Shown piece by piece: positions 15,754 through 40,794 of a DNA stretch of 64,000 nucleotides (the first letter of the stretch is position 1; each line of letters starts with the position of its first letter). The stretch is from positions 2,089 through 66,088 of the forward strand of contig JASNZL010000006.1 of NCBI GenBank assembly GCA_048499675.1. Direction: 5' to 3'. Source of the stretch: Candidatus Zambryskiibacteriota bacterium. Lineage in GTDB: Bacteria; Patescibacteriota; Minisyncoccia; Phycocordibacterales; WO2-35-19. The notes beneath the pieces are model-generated. The model searched no databases. It was not told the origin of the DNA and saw nothing but the letters and a program-made list of their open reading frames with translations. The position numbers and the translations under genes were made by a program.

Positions 15754-15952
15754 AAATTTTACGATAAATGAGCCGTTGATCGGGATTGGTGTCAACTCAC
15801 ATCAATATTTTTATTCGTAATACTCTAAAAATATTGTGTGGTTCCTACCCGGCCTCGCCCGTCTCGCTTAGCTCGACATGGCTCCGGCTTTCAACCTCCG
15901 AACGCAAAGCAAGCAGTTTCTTTGCTTCAACACCTCACTCACTTTGTTCGTG

Positions 15953-31694: not shown

Positions 31695-32813
31695 CTAAGG
31701 CAAAGACTCTACATTTTTAAGCCTAGGATATAATATAACATCACGGATATTTTCATATCCAAGCACCCAGGCAATAAATCTTTCAATTCCTAATCCAAAA
31801 CCTGATGTAATTTTGTAATTATCTTGTCTACGTAAATCTATATACCATTCATAATTTTTAGAGTCTACAGATTGTCTTTTTAATGATTCATAAATTTCAC
31901 TCGGATTATCTTGCCTTTGACCAGCTCCAACAATTTCTCCTGAAAAACCTTCAGTTGATAGAGGGGGAAACATTAAATCCGAAGCAATTACTGAATCATT
32001 ATTAAATGGTTTTTGATAAAAAGGAGTCATATCTCTATCAAAATTTGTAATCCAAAATGGCTTAAAATTACCCCTATTAGCTGCATATGCCCTTTCTCCT
32101 TTTGCTGATATCTTTCTACCAAAATTATTCTGTATAACATATTCATTACCGCCTTTTCCTTCCAAATCCTTAAAAACCTCATCAAAAGTAACAGAATCCA
32201 ATCTTTCACTTTTTTGAATAGAAATTAAAGCAGCTTTAGTGTTCAAAGGATCAATGGCCATTTTTTCAACAATTGGCATAAGTGACATACAAATTTCAGA
32301 TAGTGCTTTTATATAATCTTCAACCAGTGGTATTAGATTTTCCATTTTGTCTAAAATTTCTGCTTCGCAATGATAAAATTGATTTAAATGTCTTTCATCA
32401 GGATCTTCTCCTCTCATTGAGGGTAAATAACAGTATAATTTATCAATATTATTACCAAGTAACGGTTCAAAACCAAATTGTGATGAATCAGTAAGATTAG
32501 TTAAATTCTCCCCCAATTTGAAAGCAATGGCTTCAGAATCAGACCCAGGACCCATTGGTGAGGATACACTTGAAGTCATCATAAACAGATCAATATTCTT
32601 TGCTCCAACATGATTACTAAAAAAATCATCTGAAGCCAGTTTAATATAATGTCTTAATATGATAAGTGCTTCATAGTAAGGATTTTTAATAATGTCTAAA
32701 TAATAACTACTTGGAATATATTTGGAAGGTCTTAATTCTGAATTTATATTTTCAATAAACTTTCCAGACTCACTTTTAGCCTTTTTTAAAATTTTTTTAG
32801 ATACAAAAGTCAT
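31695..32813 (-). CDS. Asparaginyl-tRNA-synthetase-like protein: class IIb catalytic core only, no anticodon-binding domain
   Basis: Motif 2 is YLPSMRGEDPDERHLNQFYHCEAEI. Motif 3 is NYEWYIDLRRQDNYKITSGFGLGIERFIAWVLGYENIRDVILYPR, nearly co-linear with AsnRS DYWWYRDLRRYG...[27 protein letters not shown]. The N-terminal 120 aa are unrelated to the OB fold. Confidence 0.75.
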   Translation of the reverse strand: MTFVSKKILKKAKSESGKFIENINSELRPSKYIPSSYYLDIIKNPYYEALIILRHYIKLASDDFFSNHVGAKNIDLFMMTSSVSSPMGPGSDSEAIAFKLGENLTNLTDSSQFGFEPLLGNNIDKLYCYLPSMRGEDPDERHLNQFYHCEAEILDKMENLIPLVEDYIKALSEICMSLMPIVEKMAIDPLNTKAALISIQKSERLDSVTFDEVFKDLEGKGGNEYVIQNNFGRKISAKGERAYAANRGNFKPFWITNFDRDMTPFYQKPFNNDSVIASDLMFPPLSTEGFSGEIVGAGQRQDNPSEIYESLKRQSVDSKNYEWYIDLRRQDNYKITSGFGLGIERFIAWVLGYENIRDVILYPRLKNVESLP

Positions 32814-32818
32814 AAAAT

Positions 32819-33763
32819 TTATTGATTGAATATTAAAATGTTTTTAGAAGTATTTATGTGAGCAATGCCTCCAATAGGTATTGTGAACATTGGGTCTGTG
32901 TGACCAAAATCTAAATTATATAATATTGGTATATTTAAATCTCCACATATTTCATTAATTAAATCAATAAGTTGTTCGTCGTCTATATTAGCAGATTCAG
33001 CAAAACGACCAAAAACTAAACCTTTTATTTTTGAAAAATTTTTCTGTAGAGATAATTGTGTTAAAAATCTTCTAAACATGGTATTTGTTATAGTTTCATC
33101 TTCTTCTATAAAAATAATACTACCTTCTAATTCAGGAAAATACTCTGTACCTGCTAAAATTAATATAGTTTGTAGATTACCCGCAATAATTTTACCTGTC
33201 GCTATACCAGTTCCAACAACAAGACGTCCTTTATTTTTTTTTATTTCTCTTACCAAGTTTTCAGGTGGTTTTTTTAAATAATAAGCATCATCGGCATATA
33301 CCTCTGAATCAGAAATCAATATCTCAGATTCACCTGATACAGCTTTTTTCATATATTCTAAAGTATATTCGAGTGGCTCTGGCTTAAGATAAGTTATGCC
33401 TGCTGGTCCCAGATAAGTAATTTGACCAGTTTTTTGTGTTATCGCTATAAGTAATGCAGTAGTATCTGAAAAACCTATTGTGGGTTTAAAATTATTTTTT
33501 ATTAGTTCATAATCTAAATGTTTCAAAACTTCATTTGTATTAAATCCACCCCAAAAAGACATCACGATATCAATAGTATCATCTTGATACAGCTCATGTA
33601 GAGCATCTGCTCTCTCTTTTGCAGTTCCGGCCAAGTATCCATTATGAACCTTTTTACATATAGAATGTTCAAATACATTAAACCCATTGTTTTTTAAAAA
33701 TTCATATTTTCTTTGTTCACCTTTTGGTGTCATATCTCCGGTTGCAAAAATTCCAATATTCAT
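32819..33763 (-). CDS. S66-family serine peptidase (LD-carboxypeptidase / MccF-like)
   Basis: Nucleophile motif GFSDTTAL, with length and architecture typical of LdcA/MccF. Confidence 0.7.
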   Translation of the reverse strand: MNIGIFATGDMTPKGEQRKYEFLKNNGFNVFEHSICKKVHNGYLAGTAKERADALHELYQDDTIDIVMSFWGGFNTNEVLKHLDYELIKNNFKPTIGFSDTTALLIAITQKTGQITYLGPAGITYLKPEPLEYTLEYMKKAVSGESEILISDSEVYADDAYYLKKPPENLVREIKKNKGRLVVGTGIATGKIIAGNLQTILILAGTEYFPELEGSIIFIEEDETITNTMFRRFLTQLSLQKNFSKIKGLVFGRFAESANIDDEQLIDLINEICGDLNIPILYNLDFGHTDPMFTIPIGGIAHINTSKNILIFNQ

Positions 33764-33767
33764 AAAT

Positions 33768-34928
33768 CTATTTATTATTTGATAAAACCTCTAAATATAT
33801 ATCTCGAGTTTTGATTAACATCTTTTCTAGAGAATAGTGTTCTTCATAATATTTTAAAGTATCTTTACGCATCTTTAATATTTTATCTTCTGATAATTTC
33901 AACATTATACTTGCTGAATTTCCAATAACATCTTCATCGACTCGAAAACCTGATACTTCGTTTTCAAACATTTTTGATACAGAATCCAAATTAGGTAATA
34001 TTGGTATGCATCCGCAAGACATACTATCTATTATTGAAATAGGAAAAACATCTGATGTTGAAAATAACACAGAGAAAGAACAGTTCACCATTATAGATTT
34101 CATCTCACTAGGATCATCTAAATATCCGTATAGTTTTACGAATGGTAAGTTTTCCTTTTTTATTTGTTCATATAGTTCTCCTTCCCCTATTACATGTAGA
34201 TTTACATTATTAGTTAATCTAATTTTTTTTACTAAATCAATTGCTTTCAGTATTCCTTTGTCATAACTTAATTTTCCTAAATACAGAATATCTGTTGTTA
34301 CTTTTAAATTATTTTGATCAACAGGTTCAATTTTTGATGTATGATGTATAATTGATATATTATTTCTTTTTATTTCATATTCTTTCTCTACTACTTTTTT
34401 AGATTCATCAGAAAAACATATAATATGATTTGAATTAAGCAACATATCTTTTTCAATATTAATAATATCAAGATGCTTTTCTTCTATTGGGTTTTCTATC
34501 ATTTTTTCATATTGTTTTTGCAAAAAATGAATTGAAGATATAATTGGAATTTTTAAAGCCTTACTAACTTTTTTTGCTGTTATCCAAGACATCCAATTGT
34601 TTGAATGTATTACAATATTTTTTAGATTATTATTCTTAATAAAATTAATAATATGCTTAGCAAGAAAATCCTGCCAAATTAAAAAATTATTATAATTATC
34701 AAAAATAGAGTACTTATCATGACTTAAATATTTTTCATCTTCCTCCATTTCGGTTGTAATTATTGTTTTATCAAAAACTCTAACTTTCTTTGCGGTAGCC
34801 ACATAAGATTGTATATCTGAATATTCCCTTAAACCATTATGAAGCCTTTCTACATAAATACCCATACCCCATAATGAATTAGGTGGATAATCTGAAGTTA
34901 TATGAATCACTACTATATTTCTTGACAT
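33768..34928 (-). CDS. Glycosyltransferase, GT4 (GT-B) family
   Basis: C-terminal GT4 motifs ...LYLGKLSYDKGI...E(x7)E region; 386 aa. Confidence 0.6.
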   Translation of the reverse strand: MSRNIVVIHITSDYPPNSLWGMGIYVERLHNGLREYSDIQSYVATAKKVRVFDKTIITTEMEEDEKYLSHDKYSIFDNYNNFLIWQDFLAKHIINFIKNNNLKNIVIHSNNWMSWITAKKVSKALKIPIISSIHFLQKQYEKMIENPIEEKHLDIINIEKDMLLNSNHIICFSDESKKVVEKEYEIKRNNISIIHHTSKIEPVDQNNLKVTTDILYLGKLSYDKGILKAIDLVKKIRLTNNVNLHVIGEGELYEQIKKENLPFVKLYGYLDDPSEMKSIMVNCSFSVLFSTSDVFPISIIDSMSCGCIPILPNLDSVSKMFENEVSGFRVDEDVIGNSASIMLKLSEDKILKMRKDTLKYYEEHYSLEKMLIKTRDIYLEVLSNNK

Positions 34929-36076
34929 AATTTATATATTTTAGAATTACTATCATAATTTTTACCTACTTGTAATAATAATTCCCCCACTCTTATCCCG
35001 TTTTGAGAGATGTAATCTGCAATATTTTTCTTAGCTTTATCATCATCAATATCTCTTTTTATAATATCAACAAAAATACTTTCTAATTTTTTTAATACTT
35101 CCAAACGAGAGTCAAATTTTTCTAAGAATATATCGACATCTATGTCACCATTAAAAAGTTCTTTGTATTTTATTGCAATATTTTTAATTTCTTCTCTAGT
35201 AAAACCAACTGTCTGTGAAAGAAAAAAAACAGCATTAATATATTTGTTAATCATTTTTTTTGTTCTTCCTCTGGCTTGTTGAATTATGGAAATAGCGTTT
35301 AAAACAACTTCTAGATATGTTAATGCTTTTTTCTCCAAAGGTGAGCTGTGCTCTCTTACTTTGAACATGTTGGAATTTTTAAAAGGATCTCCTGATCCGG
35401 TTAATGACATTTCTAAAAATTCACGGCCAACACCAAACTCTATAGCTAATTCTTTGTCATCTTTATAAATCAAAACTATATTCCCAACATCCCACCATTC
35501 TCCATTTTTATCTTTTATAAAAATTGTAATTCCTTCACCTTTTAAATTATCAATACCATATTTCCATTGGTAAAAACGCGAATAATCTACTTCTGTTTGT
35601 ATACCCCTTTTGACAAATGGACCCAGGAGTTCAGAATGTTTTTCTGGAACAGTTGGTTTAATTAGTAAATTTTTATTATCAACCCCATATTTTTCTTTTA
35701 ATAATTTAATAACATCATTTACTATTTTGTCATATTCACCAGGTGGACAAAATATTCCATCTATATGAAAAAATGGCATACCAAAAGGTATATGCGATGT
35801 ATCATAAGCATTAATAATATCATGTGTCCTAATACAAGATTGATTAATAACAAAGCTATTTTCTGGAGATTTTCCACTTATTAAATAATCTTTAAAGGCA
35901 TTTATAGAAGATCCAACAAAAGGAACTGTGTCATCTTCCTCAGAAGGATTTAAAGATAAGCTTTCTCTTTTTATGTATCCTAAATCTACAAAATGATTAA
36001 GAAAAGTTTTATGTGTTTCTTGAGATTCAATGCTAGAGCTATTTTCTATATTACTACTAAAGTTAAAATTCTTCAT
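34913..36076 (-). CDS. Alanyl-tRNA-synthetase-like protein: class IIc catalytic domain only, no tRNA-recognition, editing or C-terminal domains
   Basis: FLNHF...[28 protein letters not shown] ~ AlaRS FLDFF...[35 protein letters not shown] ~ [24 protein letters not shown] ~ TFFEMLGNFSFGDY. GNIVLIY ~ [17 protein letters not shown] ~ DTGMGLERI (motif 3). Confidence 0.7.
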   Translation of the reverse strand: [387 protein letters not shown]

Positions 36077-36081
36077 CTTAT

Positions 36082-36897
36082 TTAAACAAAAAACTCAGGT
36101 TCCTCTTTTATTTTTCTTTTTCGATATATTTGAATAGAGAAACCTAAATACTTGTGATTTTCATTAAAAACTTGTATATGTTTTTTCCAACGTTCTCTGA
36201 TTACCTCTTGCAAATCATTGTTTAAATTTTGAATGTGTTCTTTTTGAATGAAATATGAAACATAGTCATTTATTTCCATTTCTGTTTTTGATGATAAAGT
36301 TTTAGTTTCTTCATGATATAACTCCCACAATTCATTTTCCGCCAAAATCTTATTTTTCCAATCACCGGCATTCATTGGAGTAATTTCAATACCTAATATT
36401 TTGTTTATAGAATTAATAATTTCTTTGGGTGGATCTGTATGATATACAAGTGGAGTAATTATCAAAAACCCCCAATTTTTTAAGATACGAAAGTATTCTT
36501 CTAAAGCTTTTTCTTTTCTACTCATGAAACCCGTCGCTCCTCCTGCCATAATAATATCAAAATATTCATCCTTATAAGGTATGTCGTAACTACTTGCAAC
36601 CTTAAAATTAACCCTGTGACTAATTTCTTTGCAGTCTGATTTTTTTATTTCATTCGCAATTTCCACACATTTTTCGGATATATCAATACCATATATTTTA
36701 GCTTTAGATATTCTTACAAATTCTAAAGAGGTAAACCCTGTATTAGAACCAATCTCTAATATTTTTGTTTTTTCGTTTATATCAATAATCTCTCTTATCC
36801 TTTTTATAGTTTGTTTACCTCCAGGACATCTATTAGTCTCTTTAATAAACGCGATAAAATCGGTATAAGACATATCCTTTATAGTTTTCAGATCCAT
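36082..36897 (-). CDS. Class I SAM-dependent methyltransferase
   Basis: Motif I ILEIGSNTGFTSLEF and a post-I acidic residue (YGIDISE). Confidence 0.7.
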   Translation of the reverse strand: MDLKTIKDMSYTDFIAFIKETNRCPGGKQTIKRIREIIDINEKTKILEIGSNTGFTSLEFVRISKAKIYGIDISEKCVEIANEIKKSDCKEISHRVNFKVASSYDIPYKDEYFDIIMAGGATGFMSRKEKALEEYFRILKNWGFLIITPLVYHTDPPKEIINSINKILGIEITPMNAGDWKNKILAENELWELYHEETKTLSSKTEMEINDYVSYFIQKEHIQNLNNDLQEVIRERWKKHIQVFNENHKYLGFSIQIYRKRKIKEEPEFFV

Positions 36898-37384
36898 TAA
36901 TAGAGATTATCACATTTGTGTGAAATAGAAAATATTTTATTTAAGCTAGATATTCAAAGAATATTCCTTGGCGCGAGTGATCCTCTTTCGCTTAAGCTAC
37001 AGTGGGACGCAGTAGGATTTGGTCACACATATTTTTCTCGCCGTCGCTCGAAAAATTGTTCGACCCCGCCTCTCTTCTGAACTTTGCTAAGTCCAGCCTC
37101 CGCTTCGCTTCGGGCGCTGCGGCTTTCAAGTCCCATCGTGCTTAGCATAAGCACCAAAAGAAAATCCCAGTTTTTACTGGGATTTTCTTTTGTCGCTGCG
37201 CGAGTGATGGGAATCTTTTCCTCAACTCAAAATTTTTTCAGTCAAAAAATTTTGGTCTGGGCACCGGCTCATGGAAATTTTTTGCTAAAAATTTCACATT
37301 CCGCCGTTCAAGTCCCATACGCAAAGCAAGCAGTTGCTTTGCTCACTCGCTTAAACAAAAAGCCCCCAGAGGGGGTTTTGTTTG

Positions 37385-37658
37385 CGCGAGTGATGGGACT
37401 TGAACCCACGGCCTTCCGCGTGCACTGATCCACTATTTTCATAATGGCGTGGACTATATCTTCGCCATGAGCATTGAGCTTTTAGGTGCTTTGGTATCTA
37501 GTCTCTACGGCGCTCTCGCCTCAATTAGGCAAGTTCCCTCGGTGTTCGCATATCTTTCGACTTAGCCTTCACCGATATCCCAAAGAGTTTCAATTCGTCT
37601 TTCAACGAAAAGCTGCAATTCTACAGGCGGACGCTCTAACCAGCTGAGCTACACCCGC
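37385..37658 (-). tRNA. tRNA-Asp (GUC) interrupted by a 200-nt group I intron in the anticodon loop (between nt 35 and 36)
   Basis: 5' exon GCGGGTG-TA-GCTCAGCTGGTTAGAGC-G-TCCGC-CTGT. 3' exon CAC-GCGGA-AGGCC-GTGGGTTCAAGTCCCAT-CACTCGC-G. The reconstituted loop is CTGTCAC, with G73, C38 and G10 (Asp identity elements). The intron ends in G and carries a P7-like GTAGAGACTAGAT. Confidence 0.7.
37423..37622 (-). other. Group I intron (about 200 nt) within tRNA-Asp
   Basis: An internal guide GCAG can pair with the exon end CUGU (U·G at the splice site). The terminal nucleotide is G. It shares a GTAGAGACTAGAT core motif with the intron at 39867-40138. Confidence 0.6.
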
Positions 37659-38322
37659 ACTTTTATATATCTCTCAAAAATCACCCTTTTCCTACCAAGA
37701 AATAATTTTGAGGTATATAGTCCATTATACATAAAACTATATAATTTTAAAGAGCCATAAATGCTATATGTTAAACGATAAAAATTACCTTTCCCTTTCT
37801 TTAATACTCCTTTTTTTATACCATGTTTCTCTAATTTATCATTTATACTTTCCAGAAAGTTTTTTGAACAAGAAGTGAAAACTGTTTGTATAGATAAAGT
37901 ACTTGTTCTCCTGTTCTTGTGGATTAAACCACTCCACACATTACCATCCCCATCAAAATACCCCCTTACAAAATGGCAAAAAATTTATCTGGAATATTTG
38001 GAACTGCTAGACTTTTGGTTTTGTTTTGTCTCATTCCCAAATCGTAGAGATCGTTATACATTTCCTTACTACCAATTTGCAATCTATAGCTAATTTTATC
38101 TTCTTTGCGTTTTTTTACTCTTAAACTTATTTTATGTTCCGATCCAATTGTTTTTTTAATCTCCATTAGTAATTTTTTATCGTTAATATGGATATTCCAA
38201 AAATGGGCACCCCTTTTGTTTAAGGTCATATATCCGTCAGCAGCAAAAAAACCTAAAATATAAGCCATCTCCGGTGTCCATTTTTTAAAGAAATTTTTGT
38301 TTACATTTTTATATATCGGCAT
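37649..38322 (-). pseudogene. LAGLIDADG homing endonuclease, free-standing, split into two ORFs (37966-38322 and 37649-37939)
   Basis: The N-terminal ORF has AYILGFFAADGYM (the LAGLIDADG motif) and the C-terminal ORF carries the second half-domain. The split lies at 37940-37965. The 3' end abuts or overlaps the tRNA-Asp 5' end. Confidence 0.65.
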
Positions 38323-38970
38323 GATTTAATAATATCTCGTGACAGTATAGTTTACTATCCGTAATGTTTATAGCTTTTAAACTTTCTGATAAAAAATTAC
38401 CGCTTCACTACCAATCCAACAGGCGGGAAGGTTGCAGAGCTACTGCGGTGTAAGTACAATTAATATATATTAATTAATCTAAATTATGGAACCTAATGAT
38501 CAAAAACTGATTGAGTTGGAGAAAAAAGTTGATGCGATTTATGAATCCGTAGAAAAAACCAGAAAATATTTTCTCTGGACCTTGATTATTACTCTCGCAA
38601 TAGTTGTTTTACCACTAATTGCTATGATGTTTGTAATCCCCTCTTTTATAAGCAGTTATACAAGCACTTTGGATACTTTGGGATTGTGATTATTTTGTAC
38701 TTGCACAGCAAAACGAAGTGAAGTGGTGCTGGGGGTGGGGATCGGTCACAAATAAATTGCTTCGCAATTTTTCGTCTTCTTACAGAAGCTGTTCACTCAT
38801 TGGGCTTTTTATTTCGCATAGCTCATAAAAATTCTCAATGAGTCTTGCGCTTGGGCCCCATCCCAAGCTCACCCCAGCTCACCTGTTTCTCTTTGCTCAA
38901 CATGGCTCCACTTTTCGATCCACAACGCAAATCAAGCAGTTGATTTGCTCTGAAAAAAATACTTCGTATT

Positions 38971-39047
38971 TGGTGCCGGGGGTGGGGATCGAACCCACGA
39001 CCTGAGGTTTATGATTCCTCTGCTCTACCAACTAAGCTACCCCGACA
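38971..39047 (-). tRNA. tRNA-Met/Ile2 (anticodon CAU), intronless, with encoded CCA
   Basis: GTCGGGG/CCCCGGC acceptor, D-arm GCTTAGTTGGTAGAGC, anticodon loop ATCATAA, T-arm CGTGG-GTTCGAT-CCCAC, and 3' CCA. Confidence 0.75.
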
Positions 39048-39061
39048 ATTCTCATAATTTA

Positions 39062-39748
39062 TCATATTTTAGAACGACTTGCCATATAATCTATGGCCCC
39101 AAGTATTTTATTTTTTAAGAATAATCCCCTCCTAACCTTAATCCTTAAAACACCTCTATAAGTAGCAATATTTTTAAAAGAAGCTTTTTTAAGCTTTGAT
39201 TTTATTAGAGTCGTCTTTGAAAACTGATTTTCTTTTATATTTAGATATTTTATCCAAAAATTTTTTATTTTTTCCTTTTCAATCTTAAATATATCATTTA
39301 AAGACAAGCGAAATATTAAATCATTTTTTGATACATTATTTTTTTGAAGCCATTTTATATAGAACCTTATCATTTGCGGATTGCTGTTTGTAAAGCCCAT
39401 TTCATCATTACTTTCTTTGTACCCCTCGCCCCAATATAAACCGAGCCCAACCATCAATATGTCTCTATCAGTAATTTTACCGACCATTTTTACACCTTTA
39501 TTTTTCTGATCAATAGTATTATGTATTCTTTGTGCCCTTCTCTTTTCTGAATATCTTAACAAACCCTTGATAGACCTTTCCTTTTTATTAAATTTCATCA
39601 TTTTTATAATAGATGTTGATAGTTTTATGTCTCTACACCAAAAACTGACAGTAGAAAAACTCACATTTAATTTTTTTGCTATCGCCCTAACTGTCTCTCC
39701 TTTTAATCGTAATCTCTTTGCCTCACTTTTTATACCTATATTATGCAT
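39062..39748 (-). CDS. LAGLIDADG-family homing endonuclease (LGLYWGEG variant) with an N-terminal HTH, free-standing between two tRNA-Met genes
   Basis: ILMVGLGLYWGEGYK is a LAGLIDADG-type motif. The N-terminal region RAIAKKLNVSFSTVSFW is HTH-like. Confidence 0.55.
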   Translation of the reverse strand: MHNIGIKSEAKRLRLKGETVRAIAKKLNVSFSTVSFWCRDIKLSTSIIKMMKFNKKERSIKGLLRYSEKRRAQRIHNTIDQKNKGVKMVGKITDRDILMVGLGLYWGEGYKESNDEMGFTNSNPQMIRFYIKWLQKNNVSKNDLIFRLSLNDIFKIEKEKIKNFWIKYLNIKENQFSKTTLIKSKLKKASFKNIATYRGVLRIKVRRGLFLKNKILGAIDYMASRSKI

Positions 39749-39834
39749 GAGGTAAATTATACACTAAGGTGTGTGCATTTAAATGTGTTATTAACACTTG
39801 CAAACATAAATATTTTAAAGTAATATATAAATAT

Positions 39835-40177
39835 TGCGGGGTAGAGTAATAGTAACTCGTCAGGCTCAAATATGGTGGGCCCCCTATTGAGAGATTAATA
39901 GGAGCAAATTCGCCAAATTCGGAGAAATCCTCTCCACTAAAAGTGGAAAGACAATTCCGAGCTAAATTCCTTTGAACTTGTCCTGCTTGCCCGACATAGT
40001 TTTAACAACGTTGGGAGCGAAAATCAAAGGATAAATGTGTAGAGACTAGATGGTGAAATTCCAAGTTTAAATTTGGAATATGGTATAGTCCAGACCCCAA
40101 ATCCCAATCATGGGAGCATTGAAAAATGTAGTGGTAAGCATAACCTGAAAATTTTGGTGCGAATCCAAACTCCGCAA
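39835..40177 (+). tRNA. tRNA-Met (CAU) interrupted by a 272-nt group I intron between U33 and C34
   Basis: 5' exon TGCGGGG-TA-GAGTAATAGTAACTC-G-TCAGG-CT. 3' exon CATAA-CCTGA-AAAT-TTTGG-TGCGAAT-CCAAA-CTCCGCA-A. The spliced loop is CTCATAA. The intron starts after U, ends in G, has an internal guide GGCC opposite the exon GGCU, and a P7-like GTAGAGACTAGATGG. Confidence 0.7.
39867..40138 (+). other. Group I intron (272 nt) in tRNA-Met
   Basis: See the tRNA call above. There is no ORF inside. Confidence 0.6.
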
Positions 40178-40794
40178 CACGCAAATTGCACATAAAAATC
40201 CAGTTTAAAACAACTGGATTTTATGTTTGCAATTAAGTAGCCACGTGGTGAGCTTGTCCCGTGAAGCTTTGCTTTTTACGGGACATAGCGAATTTTACGT
40301 GGCCGCGATTTCTTTTCAAACCTCACCTCATTTATTGTAAGAGAAAAATTAAATATCGTTTTTCAAAACTCGATTTTCTCCGTGCAAAAAATCATTCTCT
40401 ATTTTTTAAGAAAGAGATTAAATTTTTTTATAGATACAGAACAAGAAATAAGAAGTGTGTAAAGTTAGATTTTTTCAAACAGTATTTTGAAAACAGCTTT
40501 CTGAAAATTAGCAAAGCGTTCGTTTTCAATAAGAATAGCTGTCTCAGTATCAAAATCTATAAAAATAACCTTGTCGTTTCCAATAAGTTGAGTGATATTA
40601 TACTCAAACGGAATATTCAAGGCTTTTGAGAGACGATTCAAATTGTTATGTCTTTTTTCGTGCGTCTTTCGGTTAGTAATTACATATTTATCAATATCTC
40701 CTTTAGATCCAGCTCTCTTCCAATATAAATCTGGATAATACTTTTTGTTATAGGAATAGTCTTTGGGTGATTCATATCGGTATATTGCACCTTC

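Follow-up and report, generated by a model that had tools for sequence, protein, structure and literature searches.

A 64,000-nucleotide stretch of contig JASNZL010000006.1 (assembly GCA_048499675.1), referred to below as the window, belongs to a Paceibacteria-class member of the Patescibacteria, or Candidate Phyla Radiation (CPR), and contains a tRNA gene cluster composed of an initiator tRNA-fMet, an elongator-type tRNA(CAU) and a tRNA-Asp gene. In both the initiator and the tRNA-Asp gene, the anticodon loop is split by a group I intron that has no open reading frame (ORF) of its own, and immediately outside each of them lies a free-standing gene, namely a frameshifted LAGLIDADG gene, here called HEG1, at tRNA-Asp and a gene for a 228-aa protein with a helix-turn-helix (HTH) domain, putatively an endonuclease as well, at the initiator tRNA. 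The features of the cluster, in the order of their coordinates, are as follows.

37385-37658, minus strand: tRNA-Asp(GUC) gene (ARAGORN on the spliced sequence; sequence inspection)
37423-37622, minus strand: ORF-less group I intron of 200 nt between nt 35 and 36 of tRNA-Asp (covariance model R1; RNAalifold covariation)
37649-38322, minus strand: HEG1, a two-motif LAGLIDADG homing-endonuclease gene, frameshifted (Pfam; three-frame translation; PHROG)
38338-38361, minus strand: decayed tRNA-Asp 5' half with an uninterrupted anticodon loop, CGGATAG-N8-ACTGTCACG (comparison of HEG1 loci)
38971-39046, minus strand: elongator-type tRNA(CAU), uninterrupted, Met or Ile2, with CCA encoded (ARAGORN; Rfam tRNA model, 60.8 bits)
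39062-39748, minus strand: 228-aa ORF, putative free-standing tRNA-gene-associated endonuclease (HTH profile; conserved motif; gene context)
39835-40177, plus strand: initiator tRNA-fMet(CAU) gene (ARAGORN on the spliced sequence; comparison of 28 homologues)
39867-40138, plus strand: ORF-less group I intron of 272 nt between nt 33 and 34 of the initiator tRNA (Rfam RF00028; R1)

Both interrupted genes are overlooked by ARAGORN in its default mode, which reports only three tRNA genes in the 64 kb, two tRNA-Thr genes at about 15.7-16.0 kb and the tRNA(CAU) at 38971-39046, and likewise by the Rfam tRNA model. The intron mode of ARAGORN detects both split genes with wrong boundaries and labels them Tyr and Leu, and similar miscalls by tRNA finders have been reported in the literature on patescibacterial tRNA introns (PMC13011429). 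The practical lesson is that standard tRNA finders overlook essential tRNA genes in CPR genomes.

Interrupted tRNA genes and their introns

Excision of 37423-37622 from the minus strand, as proposed in an earlier note on this DNA, joins a 5' exon of 36 nt (37658-37623) to a 3' exon of 38 nt (37422-37385, up to the discriminator G) and rebuilds a cloverleaf which ARAGORN calls as tRNA-Asp(GTC) of 75 nt, without an encoded CCA. In the same manner, excision of 39867-40138 from the plus strand joins exons of 32 nt (39835-39866) and 39 nt (40139-40177, up to the discriminator A) to a tRNA-Met(CAT) of 72 nt. For the tRNA-Asp gene, an alternative boundary shifted by 2 nt would lead to a UGC (Ala) anticodon; the GUC reading with the insert at 35/36 is favoured because G73, G10 and C38 are present and G3:U70 is absent, G73 and C38 suiting Asp. 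On inspection, we take the three nucleotides to fit the established identity set of tRNA-Asp.

The interrupted tRNA(CAU) is assigned as the initiator because of the weak or mismatched 1:72 pair, which is U1-A72 in the window and A.A, C.A or U-A in relatives, together with A11:U24, G30-C40 and G31-C39, which are constant across 28 homologues, 29:41 being A-U in many of them; its stems presumably resemble those of Escherichia coli tRNA-fMet. The initiator genes of the window (39843-39858, 40158-40164) and of the related loci L003, L004, L012 and L039 combine a D-loop without GG (AAUAGUA) with the T-loop UGCGAAU or UGCAAAU, and relatives with GG in the D-loop have the T-loop UUCGAUU, a pattern suggestive of covarying contacts in the tRNA elbow. 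The uninterrupted tRNA(CAU) between the two interrupted genes has G1-C72 and C11:G24 and is 58% identical to the spliced initiator gene. Being elongator-type and so distant from the initiator, it is excluded as donor or recipient in homing and as a functional backup, the roles that had been considered for it.

Both inserts begin after a U and end in G, contain no credible ORF and have in common a core of 13 nt (GTAGAGACTAGAT, repeat I13), as had been noted from the letters. Rfam RF00028 (Intron_gpI), applied to 37250-40300, gave no match to the Asp insert with the cut-off relaxed to E <= 10, and a family-specific covariance model, R1, was therefore built from nine aligned homologous introns found in related genomes and in the supplement of a published survey, the window sequence being excluded. 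R1 matches 37624-37423 end to end with 197.2 bits (E = 5e-57), inside the range of 182-221 bits seen in relatives, and gives an identical score to the Asp intron of a second sample, L086. The P1 helix is formed by exon CUGU and guide GCAG with a U.G pair at the splice site, and the guide UGCAGC does not vary among 10 homologues. P2 with a GAAA loop, P3 (CUUUGG/CCAAAG), P4 (UCGGUG/CACCGA), P5, P6 (UUGCCU/AGGCGA), P7 (GACUA/UAGUC), P8 (CACC/GGCG with one A.C mismatch) and a GAAA-capped P9 hairpin (CCAUUAU-GAAA-AUAGUGG) are present, and the terminal guanosine (omega-G) is located at 37423 in the context ...CAGUG-CAC, conserved in homologues. In an RNAalifold alignment of ten homologues, 22 of 40 pairs show compensatory changes, which affect P2, P3, P4, P5, P6, P8 and P9; P7 is uninformative in this respect because it is invariant. 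P10 covaries in L033, where UUG stands opposite CAA.

The initiator intron forms P1 from GGCU-CA and UG-GGCC, also with a U.G pair, and P10 from UAUG and CAUA, and has its omega-G at 40138 in the conserved context ...GUAAG-CAUAA. RF00028 matches 39857-40116 with 60.8 bits (gathering score 50; E = 6e-13), R1 cross-matches with 38 bits, the z-score of the minimum free energy (MFE) is -3.3 and homologous introns occupy the same site of the initiator tRNA in about 70 loci. The group I identity proposed earlier for both anticodon-loop inserts is supported by R1 and covariation for Asp and by RF00028 for the initiator; the Rfam model by itself detects the latter and misses the former.

Several features count against a functional Asp intron, which looks slightly weakened. 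Besides the failure of the Rfam model to match it, its P8 pairing is broken by an A.C mismatch not typical of the family, its P10 is weaker (AUUG, compared with CGUG in relatives, opposite exon CACG), its single-sequence MFE z-score is only -1.1, a value uninformative for this intron, and the adjoining HEG1 is frameshifted. These features would agree with the interrupted tRNA genes being decaying relics, the inserts of which no longer splice while functional intron-less copies are located elsewhere in the genome. That is very improbable, as the spliced exons give perfect cloverleaves, the R1 score of the Asp intron falls within that of its relatives and recurs unchanged in L086, and neither a second tRNA-Asp nor a second initiator gene was found by ARAGORN in the 64-kb window.

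The earlier note, right on the content of the sequence, is wrong on the novelty of the introns: it had regarded the Asp 35/36 site as possibly new, a claim that fails because both insertion classes have been published for Patescibacteria. The accessible text of the tFind survey states that the number of intron-interrupted bacterial tRNA types was raised to 21 (Williams, 2020, bioRxiv 10.1101/2020.01.27.920355). Patescibacterial introns at 35/36 of tRNA-Asp and tRNA-Asn, sites already called by tFind, and at 33/34 of tRNA-Met, the latter in two Microgenomatia cases, were subsequently described by Nakagawa et al. (bioRxiv 2025; mSystems 2026; PMC13011429), who demonstrated precise self-splicing in vitro of the homologous tRNA-Asp 35/36 intron of GCA_001029755.1 and reported that RF00028 and standard tRNA finders overlook some Patescibacteria tRNA introns. 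The published Asp intron of GCA_023898525.1 (Paceibacteria) aligns closely with that of the window and is plainly homologous. Host gene, site, size class (184-256 nt), absence of an ORF, U at -1, G at the intron 3' end and sequence homology are all shared between the window Asp intron and the published 35/36 class (PMC13011429), from which it differs in the genome that carries it, in the P8 mismatch and in the weaker P10; judged from its sequence, it is a group I intron of this already catalogued patescibacterial class.

The initiator intron has the same insertion site as the known fMet/Met(CAU) 33/34 introns, classical in cyanobacteria, and is, as these are, detectable with RF00028. The initiator tRNA starts with UGCGGGG and ends with CUCCGCAA like the published Microgenomatia genes, Paceibacteria not being among the Met cases tabulated (PMC13011429). 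While some cyanobacterial 33/34 introns carry an internal PD-(D/E)XK endonuclease gene (PMC13011429), the window intron is ORF-less, and the HTH-protein gene is located outside the tRNA gene. Both introns are further members of classes already known for Patescibacteria. By homology, they would leave the pre-tRNA by guanosine-initiated two-step self-splicing, whereby the internal guide would pair with the 5' exon end through a U.G pair at the splice site and the terminal G would dock for exon ligation, to give functional mature tRNAs.

Genes flanking the interrupted tRNA genes

The gene abutting tRNA-Asp had been described as a frameshifted LAGLIDADG gene, and this description holds. ORF 37966-38322 matches Pfam LAGLIDADG_3 (PF14528) at 6.5e-7 and is joined in three-frame translation, across a frameshift, to 37649-37939 as one protein with two motifs containing acidic residues, GFFAADG and, in 37649-37939, GYFDGDG; an intact homologue matches a PHROG endonuclease family at 1.5e-39. 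Since the intact, near-identical homologues P0121 and P0122 from other samples read DKYFCHFVRG across the break, the window gene is short of 1 nt in the T-run 37978-37983, and this deletion may be genuine, in which case it inactivated the gene, or an artefact of the assembly. All full-length HEG1 copies retain both catalytic motifs.

In related loci, HEG1 is always located directly 5' of tRNA-Asp and fused to its 5' end: the stop codon TAG (37651-37649) is at the same time nt 8-10 of the tRNA, in the window as in relatives. C-terminal HEG1 remnants of 31-78 residues are found upstream of tRNA-Asp in seven loci without the gene. At the other end of HEG1, 15 nt upstream of its start codon, lies the decayed tRNA-Asp 5' half. 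Of 12 loci compared, eight have it ahead of HEG1 in the conserved form CTGGTTAG-N8-CCTGTCACG-AGGTATAAT, and the window and L086 have closely similar sequences. It consists of the tRNA-Asp D-loop and an unbroken anticodon loop, CCTGTCACG, at native spacing, the intervening stems being decayed. We read this pseudo-half as a scar that marks the left junction of the HEG1 cassette. The cassette would have entered a tRNA-Asp gene without an intron on the 3' side of the anticodon stem, at about nt 39-42 and hence 4-7 nt from the intron site. The cassette would carry a replacement for the 5' part of the tRNA-Asp gene, and it is because of this replacement part that the HEG1 ORF would end in the TAG of tRNA nt 8-10. 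A search of the literature found no prior report of such a HEG1 footprint in tRNA-Asp, nor of endonuclease-type genes outside these introns.

Further upstream, CCGCCTGTTGGATTG at 38412-38426 (minus strand) resembles the tRNA-Asp exon-intron junction CCGCCTGTAGAATTG in 13 of 15 nt (repeat D14) and is kept in L086; it may be a second, older tRNA-Asp remnant or possibly a chance match. Between the elongator-type tRNA(CAU) and HEG1, an ORF of 67-69 aa with a hydrophobic C-terminal half (38486-38689, plus strand) recurs at the same relative position in related loci (L081/L082:2175-2384, L083:637-846).

The protein encoded beside the initiator tRNA, by a gene that diverges from it with a spacer of 86 nt, has an HTH at its N terminus, then a long helix and finally an alpha/beta domain that lacks annotation and carries the motif GLGLYWGEGYK. 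This motif is invariant among 514 close homologues, which all derive from Patescibacteria-type sources; in the family at large E108 and G109 are near-invariant, E108 being the acidic residue that ends the motif helix, and an exhaustive profile search with the domain retrieved 2245 representative clusters. Residues 90-228 have no match in Pfam, NCBIfam or PHROG and no sequence match in the PDB. A look-up of the exact protein retrieved only a Logan contig of 1971 bp, which is identical to the window. A comparison of the family with LAGLIDADG_3 by hhalign gave a probability of 0.5%, and with the HEG1 family no relationship. The AlphaFold2 model of the domain, computed from an alignment of 95 sequences, has a predicted local distance difference test (pLDDT) score of 95.6; Foldseek against the PDB retrieved nothing significant, the best hit being IspF at E 0.06. 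Its predicted element order, a-b-a-b-a-b-b-a, differs from the canonical LAGLIDADG order of alpha-beta-beta-alpha-beta-beta-alpha. The earlier label of a LAGLIDADG-type gene with an LGLYWGEG motif and an HTH is therefore upheld for motif and HTH and not for profile membership, and a LAGLIDADG fold is a weakly supported hypothesis, because there is neither a family nor a fold match and the order of elements is not canonical. The HTH, on the other hand, is solid, and so is the association with tRNA genes, to the neighbourhood of which the family is almost confined.

This association was established from 79 loci of the family, retrieved by a peptide pattern in a scan of one genome per species. 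A tRNA gene with a group I intron lies within about 100-300 nt of the 228-aa family gene in 76 of the 79 loci, 74 recognised with R1 and two more with ARAGORN. The adjacency holds where the tRNA gene is inverted (L002, L040), and homologues of 27-31% identity adjoin an intron-bearing tRNA-Phe (L075, L076, L078, L079). About 66-69 of the 79 copies are intact, with the key positions invariant across 35-77% identity. The related locus L084 has neither the intron nor the gene. No fragment of a pseudo initiator tRNA with an uninterrupted anticodon loop was found beside the 228-aa ORF, the matches being real intron-less genes (L081, L084). Two copies of the family occur within a single locus of a few kb in L039 (6-602 and 3001-3669) and in L054 (457-1077 and 1860-2516). 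Eight chains of 400-580 aa (P0262, P0269, P0298, P0300, P0359, P0363, P0368 and P0375) comprise two HTH-plus-domain units each, the expected look of a fused dimer, and have no Pfam match on the domain. Nine distant homologues (L087-L095, 23-32% identity) are found between the tRNA genes of large arrays on IMG/VR contigs of 98-497 kb, giant viral-type contigs, and these arrays contain no introns.

A family so well conserved makes a domesticated role of the 228-aa protein, as a maturase for the initiator intron or as a regulator of the divergent tRNA gene, a serious rival to that of a selfish endonuclease. The large share of intact copies with their invariant key positions, the HTH and the divergent arrangement over the short spacer would all suit such a host factor, and self-splicing has been demonstrated for the Asn and Asp introns only and not for the Met intron (PMC13011429). 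Nevertheless, we consider a host factor unlikely. A motif-intact homologue stands beside an intron-less initiator in L081 and an intron occurs without a family member in L085, distant homologues reside in the intron-free tRNA arrays of giant viral contigs, and L039 and L054 hold two copies each. Moreover, the acidic residue that closes the motif helix is near-invariant. WhiA has lost the acidic residue at this position.

Introns and flanking genes as possible partners

A free-standing gene of endonuclease type is found next to a tRNA gene with an ORF-less intron in the window, in 76 of the 79 loci of the 228-aa family and in 8 of 11 loci with HEG1. For the latter, full-length copies coincide with the Asp intron in eight loci and with its absence in three, as compared with five and 32 loci, respectively, where HEG1 is absent or a remnant (Fisher p = 4e-4, odds ratio 17, in a test that ignores phylogeny). 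We regard as the best, and on the whole likely, explanation that self-splicing introns without ORFs coexist with flanking selfish genes that seek tRNA genes, and the two may spread together by collaborative homing.

The flanking ORFs would, in this proposed mechanism, be selfish genes seeking tRNA genes, the products of which would cleave tRNA alleles that lack the intron, within the anticodon arm or close to it, HEG1 doing so at tRNA-Asp. An intron at 35/36 would split the endonuclease site and protect the host gene, and the intron may be co-converted together with the adjacent endonuclease gene, a process of trans or 'collaborative' homing. As the HEG1 ORF, the 5' exon and the intron together form a continuous block of no more than about 1 kb, repair of the cut would take in the intron as well. 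The 228-aa family probably acts at the initiator tRNA as HEG1 does at tRNA-Asp. Cooperation of the endonuclease genes with the introns is plausible on these comparative grounds.

A number of observations do not favour such a partnership. Intact HEG1 lies beside an intron-less tRNA-Asp in three loci, the Asp intron occurs without intact HEG1 in five, and the copy in the window itself has a broken reading frame. Of the 228-aa family, a homologue of 34% identity with the motif SLYWAEGAK adjoins an initiator tRNA that has no intron (L081), and in L085 the intron is present and a gene of the family is not; the sample of 79 loci is biased because the loci were retrieved by a peptide pattern, and support for a LAGLIDADG fold of the protein is weak. 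The link between endonuclease genes and introns that had been suggested from the window alone has gained comparative support and is not absolute, with exceptions in both pairs.

Introns and endonuclease genes might instead be independent parasites, brought together by a shared preference for tRNA genes and by vertical synteny with no cooperation involved. All four combinations of presence and absence are seen for both pairs, insertion of the HEG1 cassette could by itself destroy the target with no intron required, and the distant relatives of the 228-aa family adjoin many intron-less tRNA genes. However, no more than 4-7 nt separate the HEG1 junction from the site of the intron, HEG1 goes together with the Asp intron at the odds ratio of 17 given above, and the adjacency of the 228-aa gene in 76 of 79 loci outlasts inversion and a switch from fMet to Phe. 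Independent parasitism is, on balance, the less convincing account, although a real possibility; the mixed patterns of presence and absence fit a gain-decay-loss cycle of homing genes and, equally, independent parasites.

An ORF-less intron mobilised by a neighbouring free-standing endonuclease is the essence of collaborative, or trans, homing. Examples are F-CphI beside the psbA intron of cyanophage S-PM2 and T4 mobE with the defunct I-TevIII (PMC6083498, PMC2790892). The window resembles these systems in combining an ORF-less group I intron with an endonuclease gene just outside the interrupted gene and, as we infer, in having its target at the intron-less allele. It differs in that the interrupted genes are tRNA genes on a bacterial chromosome and the enzyme is of the LAGLIDADG type; HEG1 is, in addition, accompanied by a duplicated 5' part of its target gene. 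Free-standing homing endonucleases also reside in phage tRNA clusters, as does the GIY-YIG enzyme SegB of phage T4. Endonuclease-like ORFs between tRNA genes are common to SegB and the window, and the distant relatives of the 228-aa family on giant IMG/VR contigs are placed likewise, whereas the 228-aa family itself has the unannotated HTH-plus-alpha/beta domain and not a GIY-YIG domain. In CPR bacteria, LAGLIDADG endonucleases have been described in rRNA insertion sequences and introns (PMC11270868, as cited in PMC13011429). HEG1 shares phylum and enzyme superfamily with these; their genes are inside the intervening sequence, while HEG1 is outside the intron and next to the tRNA gene.

Previous work on patescibacterial tRNA introns sought endonuclease genes inside the introns only, found most introns to be without them and inferred limited horizontal transfer; neighbouring free-standing endonuclease genes are not mentioned there (PMC13011429). 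The recurrence of endonuclease-type genes just outside interrupted tRNA genes across dozens of species is worth specialist attention. Should the proteins prove to cleave alleles without an intron, it would be necessary to re-evaluate how mobile and how persistent these tRNA introns are, and an unannotated family of more than 2000 protein clusters would gain a function. A more far-reaching and tentative idea, to which we give rather low credence, is that the selfish elements nested in the tRNA cluster cooperate. The endonucleases, one a LAGLIDADG cassette rebuilding the 5' half of tRNA-Asp and the other from a large undescribed family of HTH-plus-nuclease-like proteins, would be tolerated since the introns split their sites in tRNAs that are probably sole copies, and the introns in turn would spread to new genomes by co-conversion. 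If true, this would amount to chromosomal collaborative homing in bacteria and would explain the persistence and spread of endonuclease-less tRNA introns, contrary to the published inference of limited transfer.

Structured elements and other observations

Directly 3' of tRNA genes for Thr, Met, fMet and Asp, structured elements of about 110-250 nt were observed, in the window at 15766-15945, 36968-37362 and 38724-38968 (minus strand) and in related loci, for example at L004:3784-3896, L039:1525-1634, L041:2470-2579 and L047:5750-5861. Two of the regions in the window belong to the cluster.

36968-37362, minus strand: two tandem structured units 3' of tRNA-Asp (repeats D1, D3, D9, I15 and I16; MFE z = -5.1; model R2)
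38724-38968, minus strand: structured unit 3' of the elongator-type tRNA(CAU) (repeats D4 and D5; model R2, 96 bits)

The elements begin with a conserved hairpin of 9 bp, GCAAAGCAA-CUGC-UUGCUUUGC, the stem of which covaries in L039 and L041. Next comes a segment complementary to the T-loop and T-stem of the tRNA upstream, in 13 of 13 nt in the case of Asp, then a core that varies and last a direct copy of the 3' end of that tRNA. The tandem units each end in a copy of the tRNA-Asp 3' end, 37195-37209 (TCCCATCACTCGCGC) and 36968-36981 (ATCACTCGCGCCA), and the last 21 nt of the unit at 38724-38968 copy the 3' end of the elongator-type tRNA(CAU). The ends of the elements pair like an acceptor/T minihelix, and MFE z-scores are -4.4 and -5.1. 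Model R2 detected 19 further copies in related loci, most of the checked ones directly 3' of tRNA genes, and no family in Rfam corresponds to the elements. Miniature elements integrating into tRNA genes may have left them as scars, or they may be tRNA-like small RNAs.

In the related loci, the intron mode of ARAGORN also called tRNA-Thr(GGU) genes with inserts of 193-210 nt at L035:5397-5678 and L057:3911-4194, and R1 gave matches of 34-42 bits overlapping the call in L035 and at L047:6140-6333. These intron-bearing tRNAs fit the divergent Thr introns described in the literature (PMC13011429).

Positions 32001-36900 of the window have a low GC content of 0.27-0.29. The similarity of a 387-aa ORF at 34913-36076 to the class II alanyl-tRNA synthetase profile is confined to the first 124 of the 552 profile positions, and this ORF is adjoined by a methyltransferase ORF at 36082-36897.

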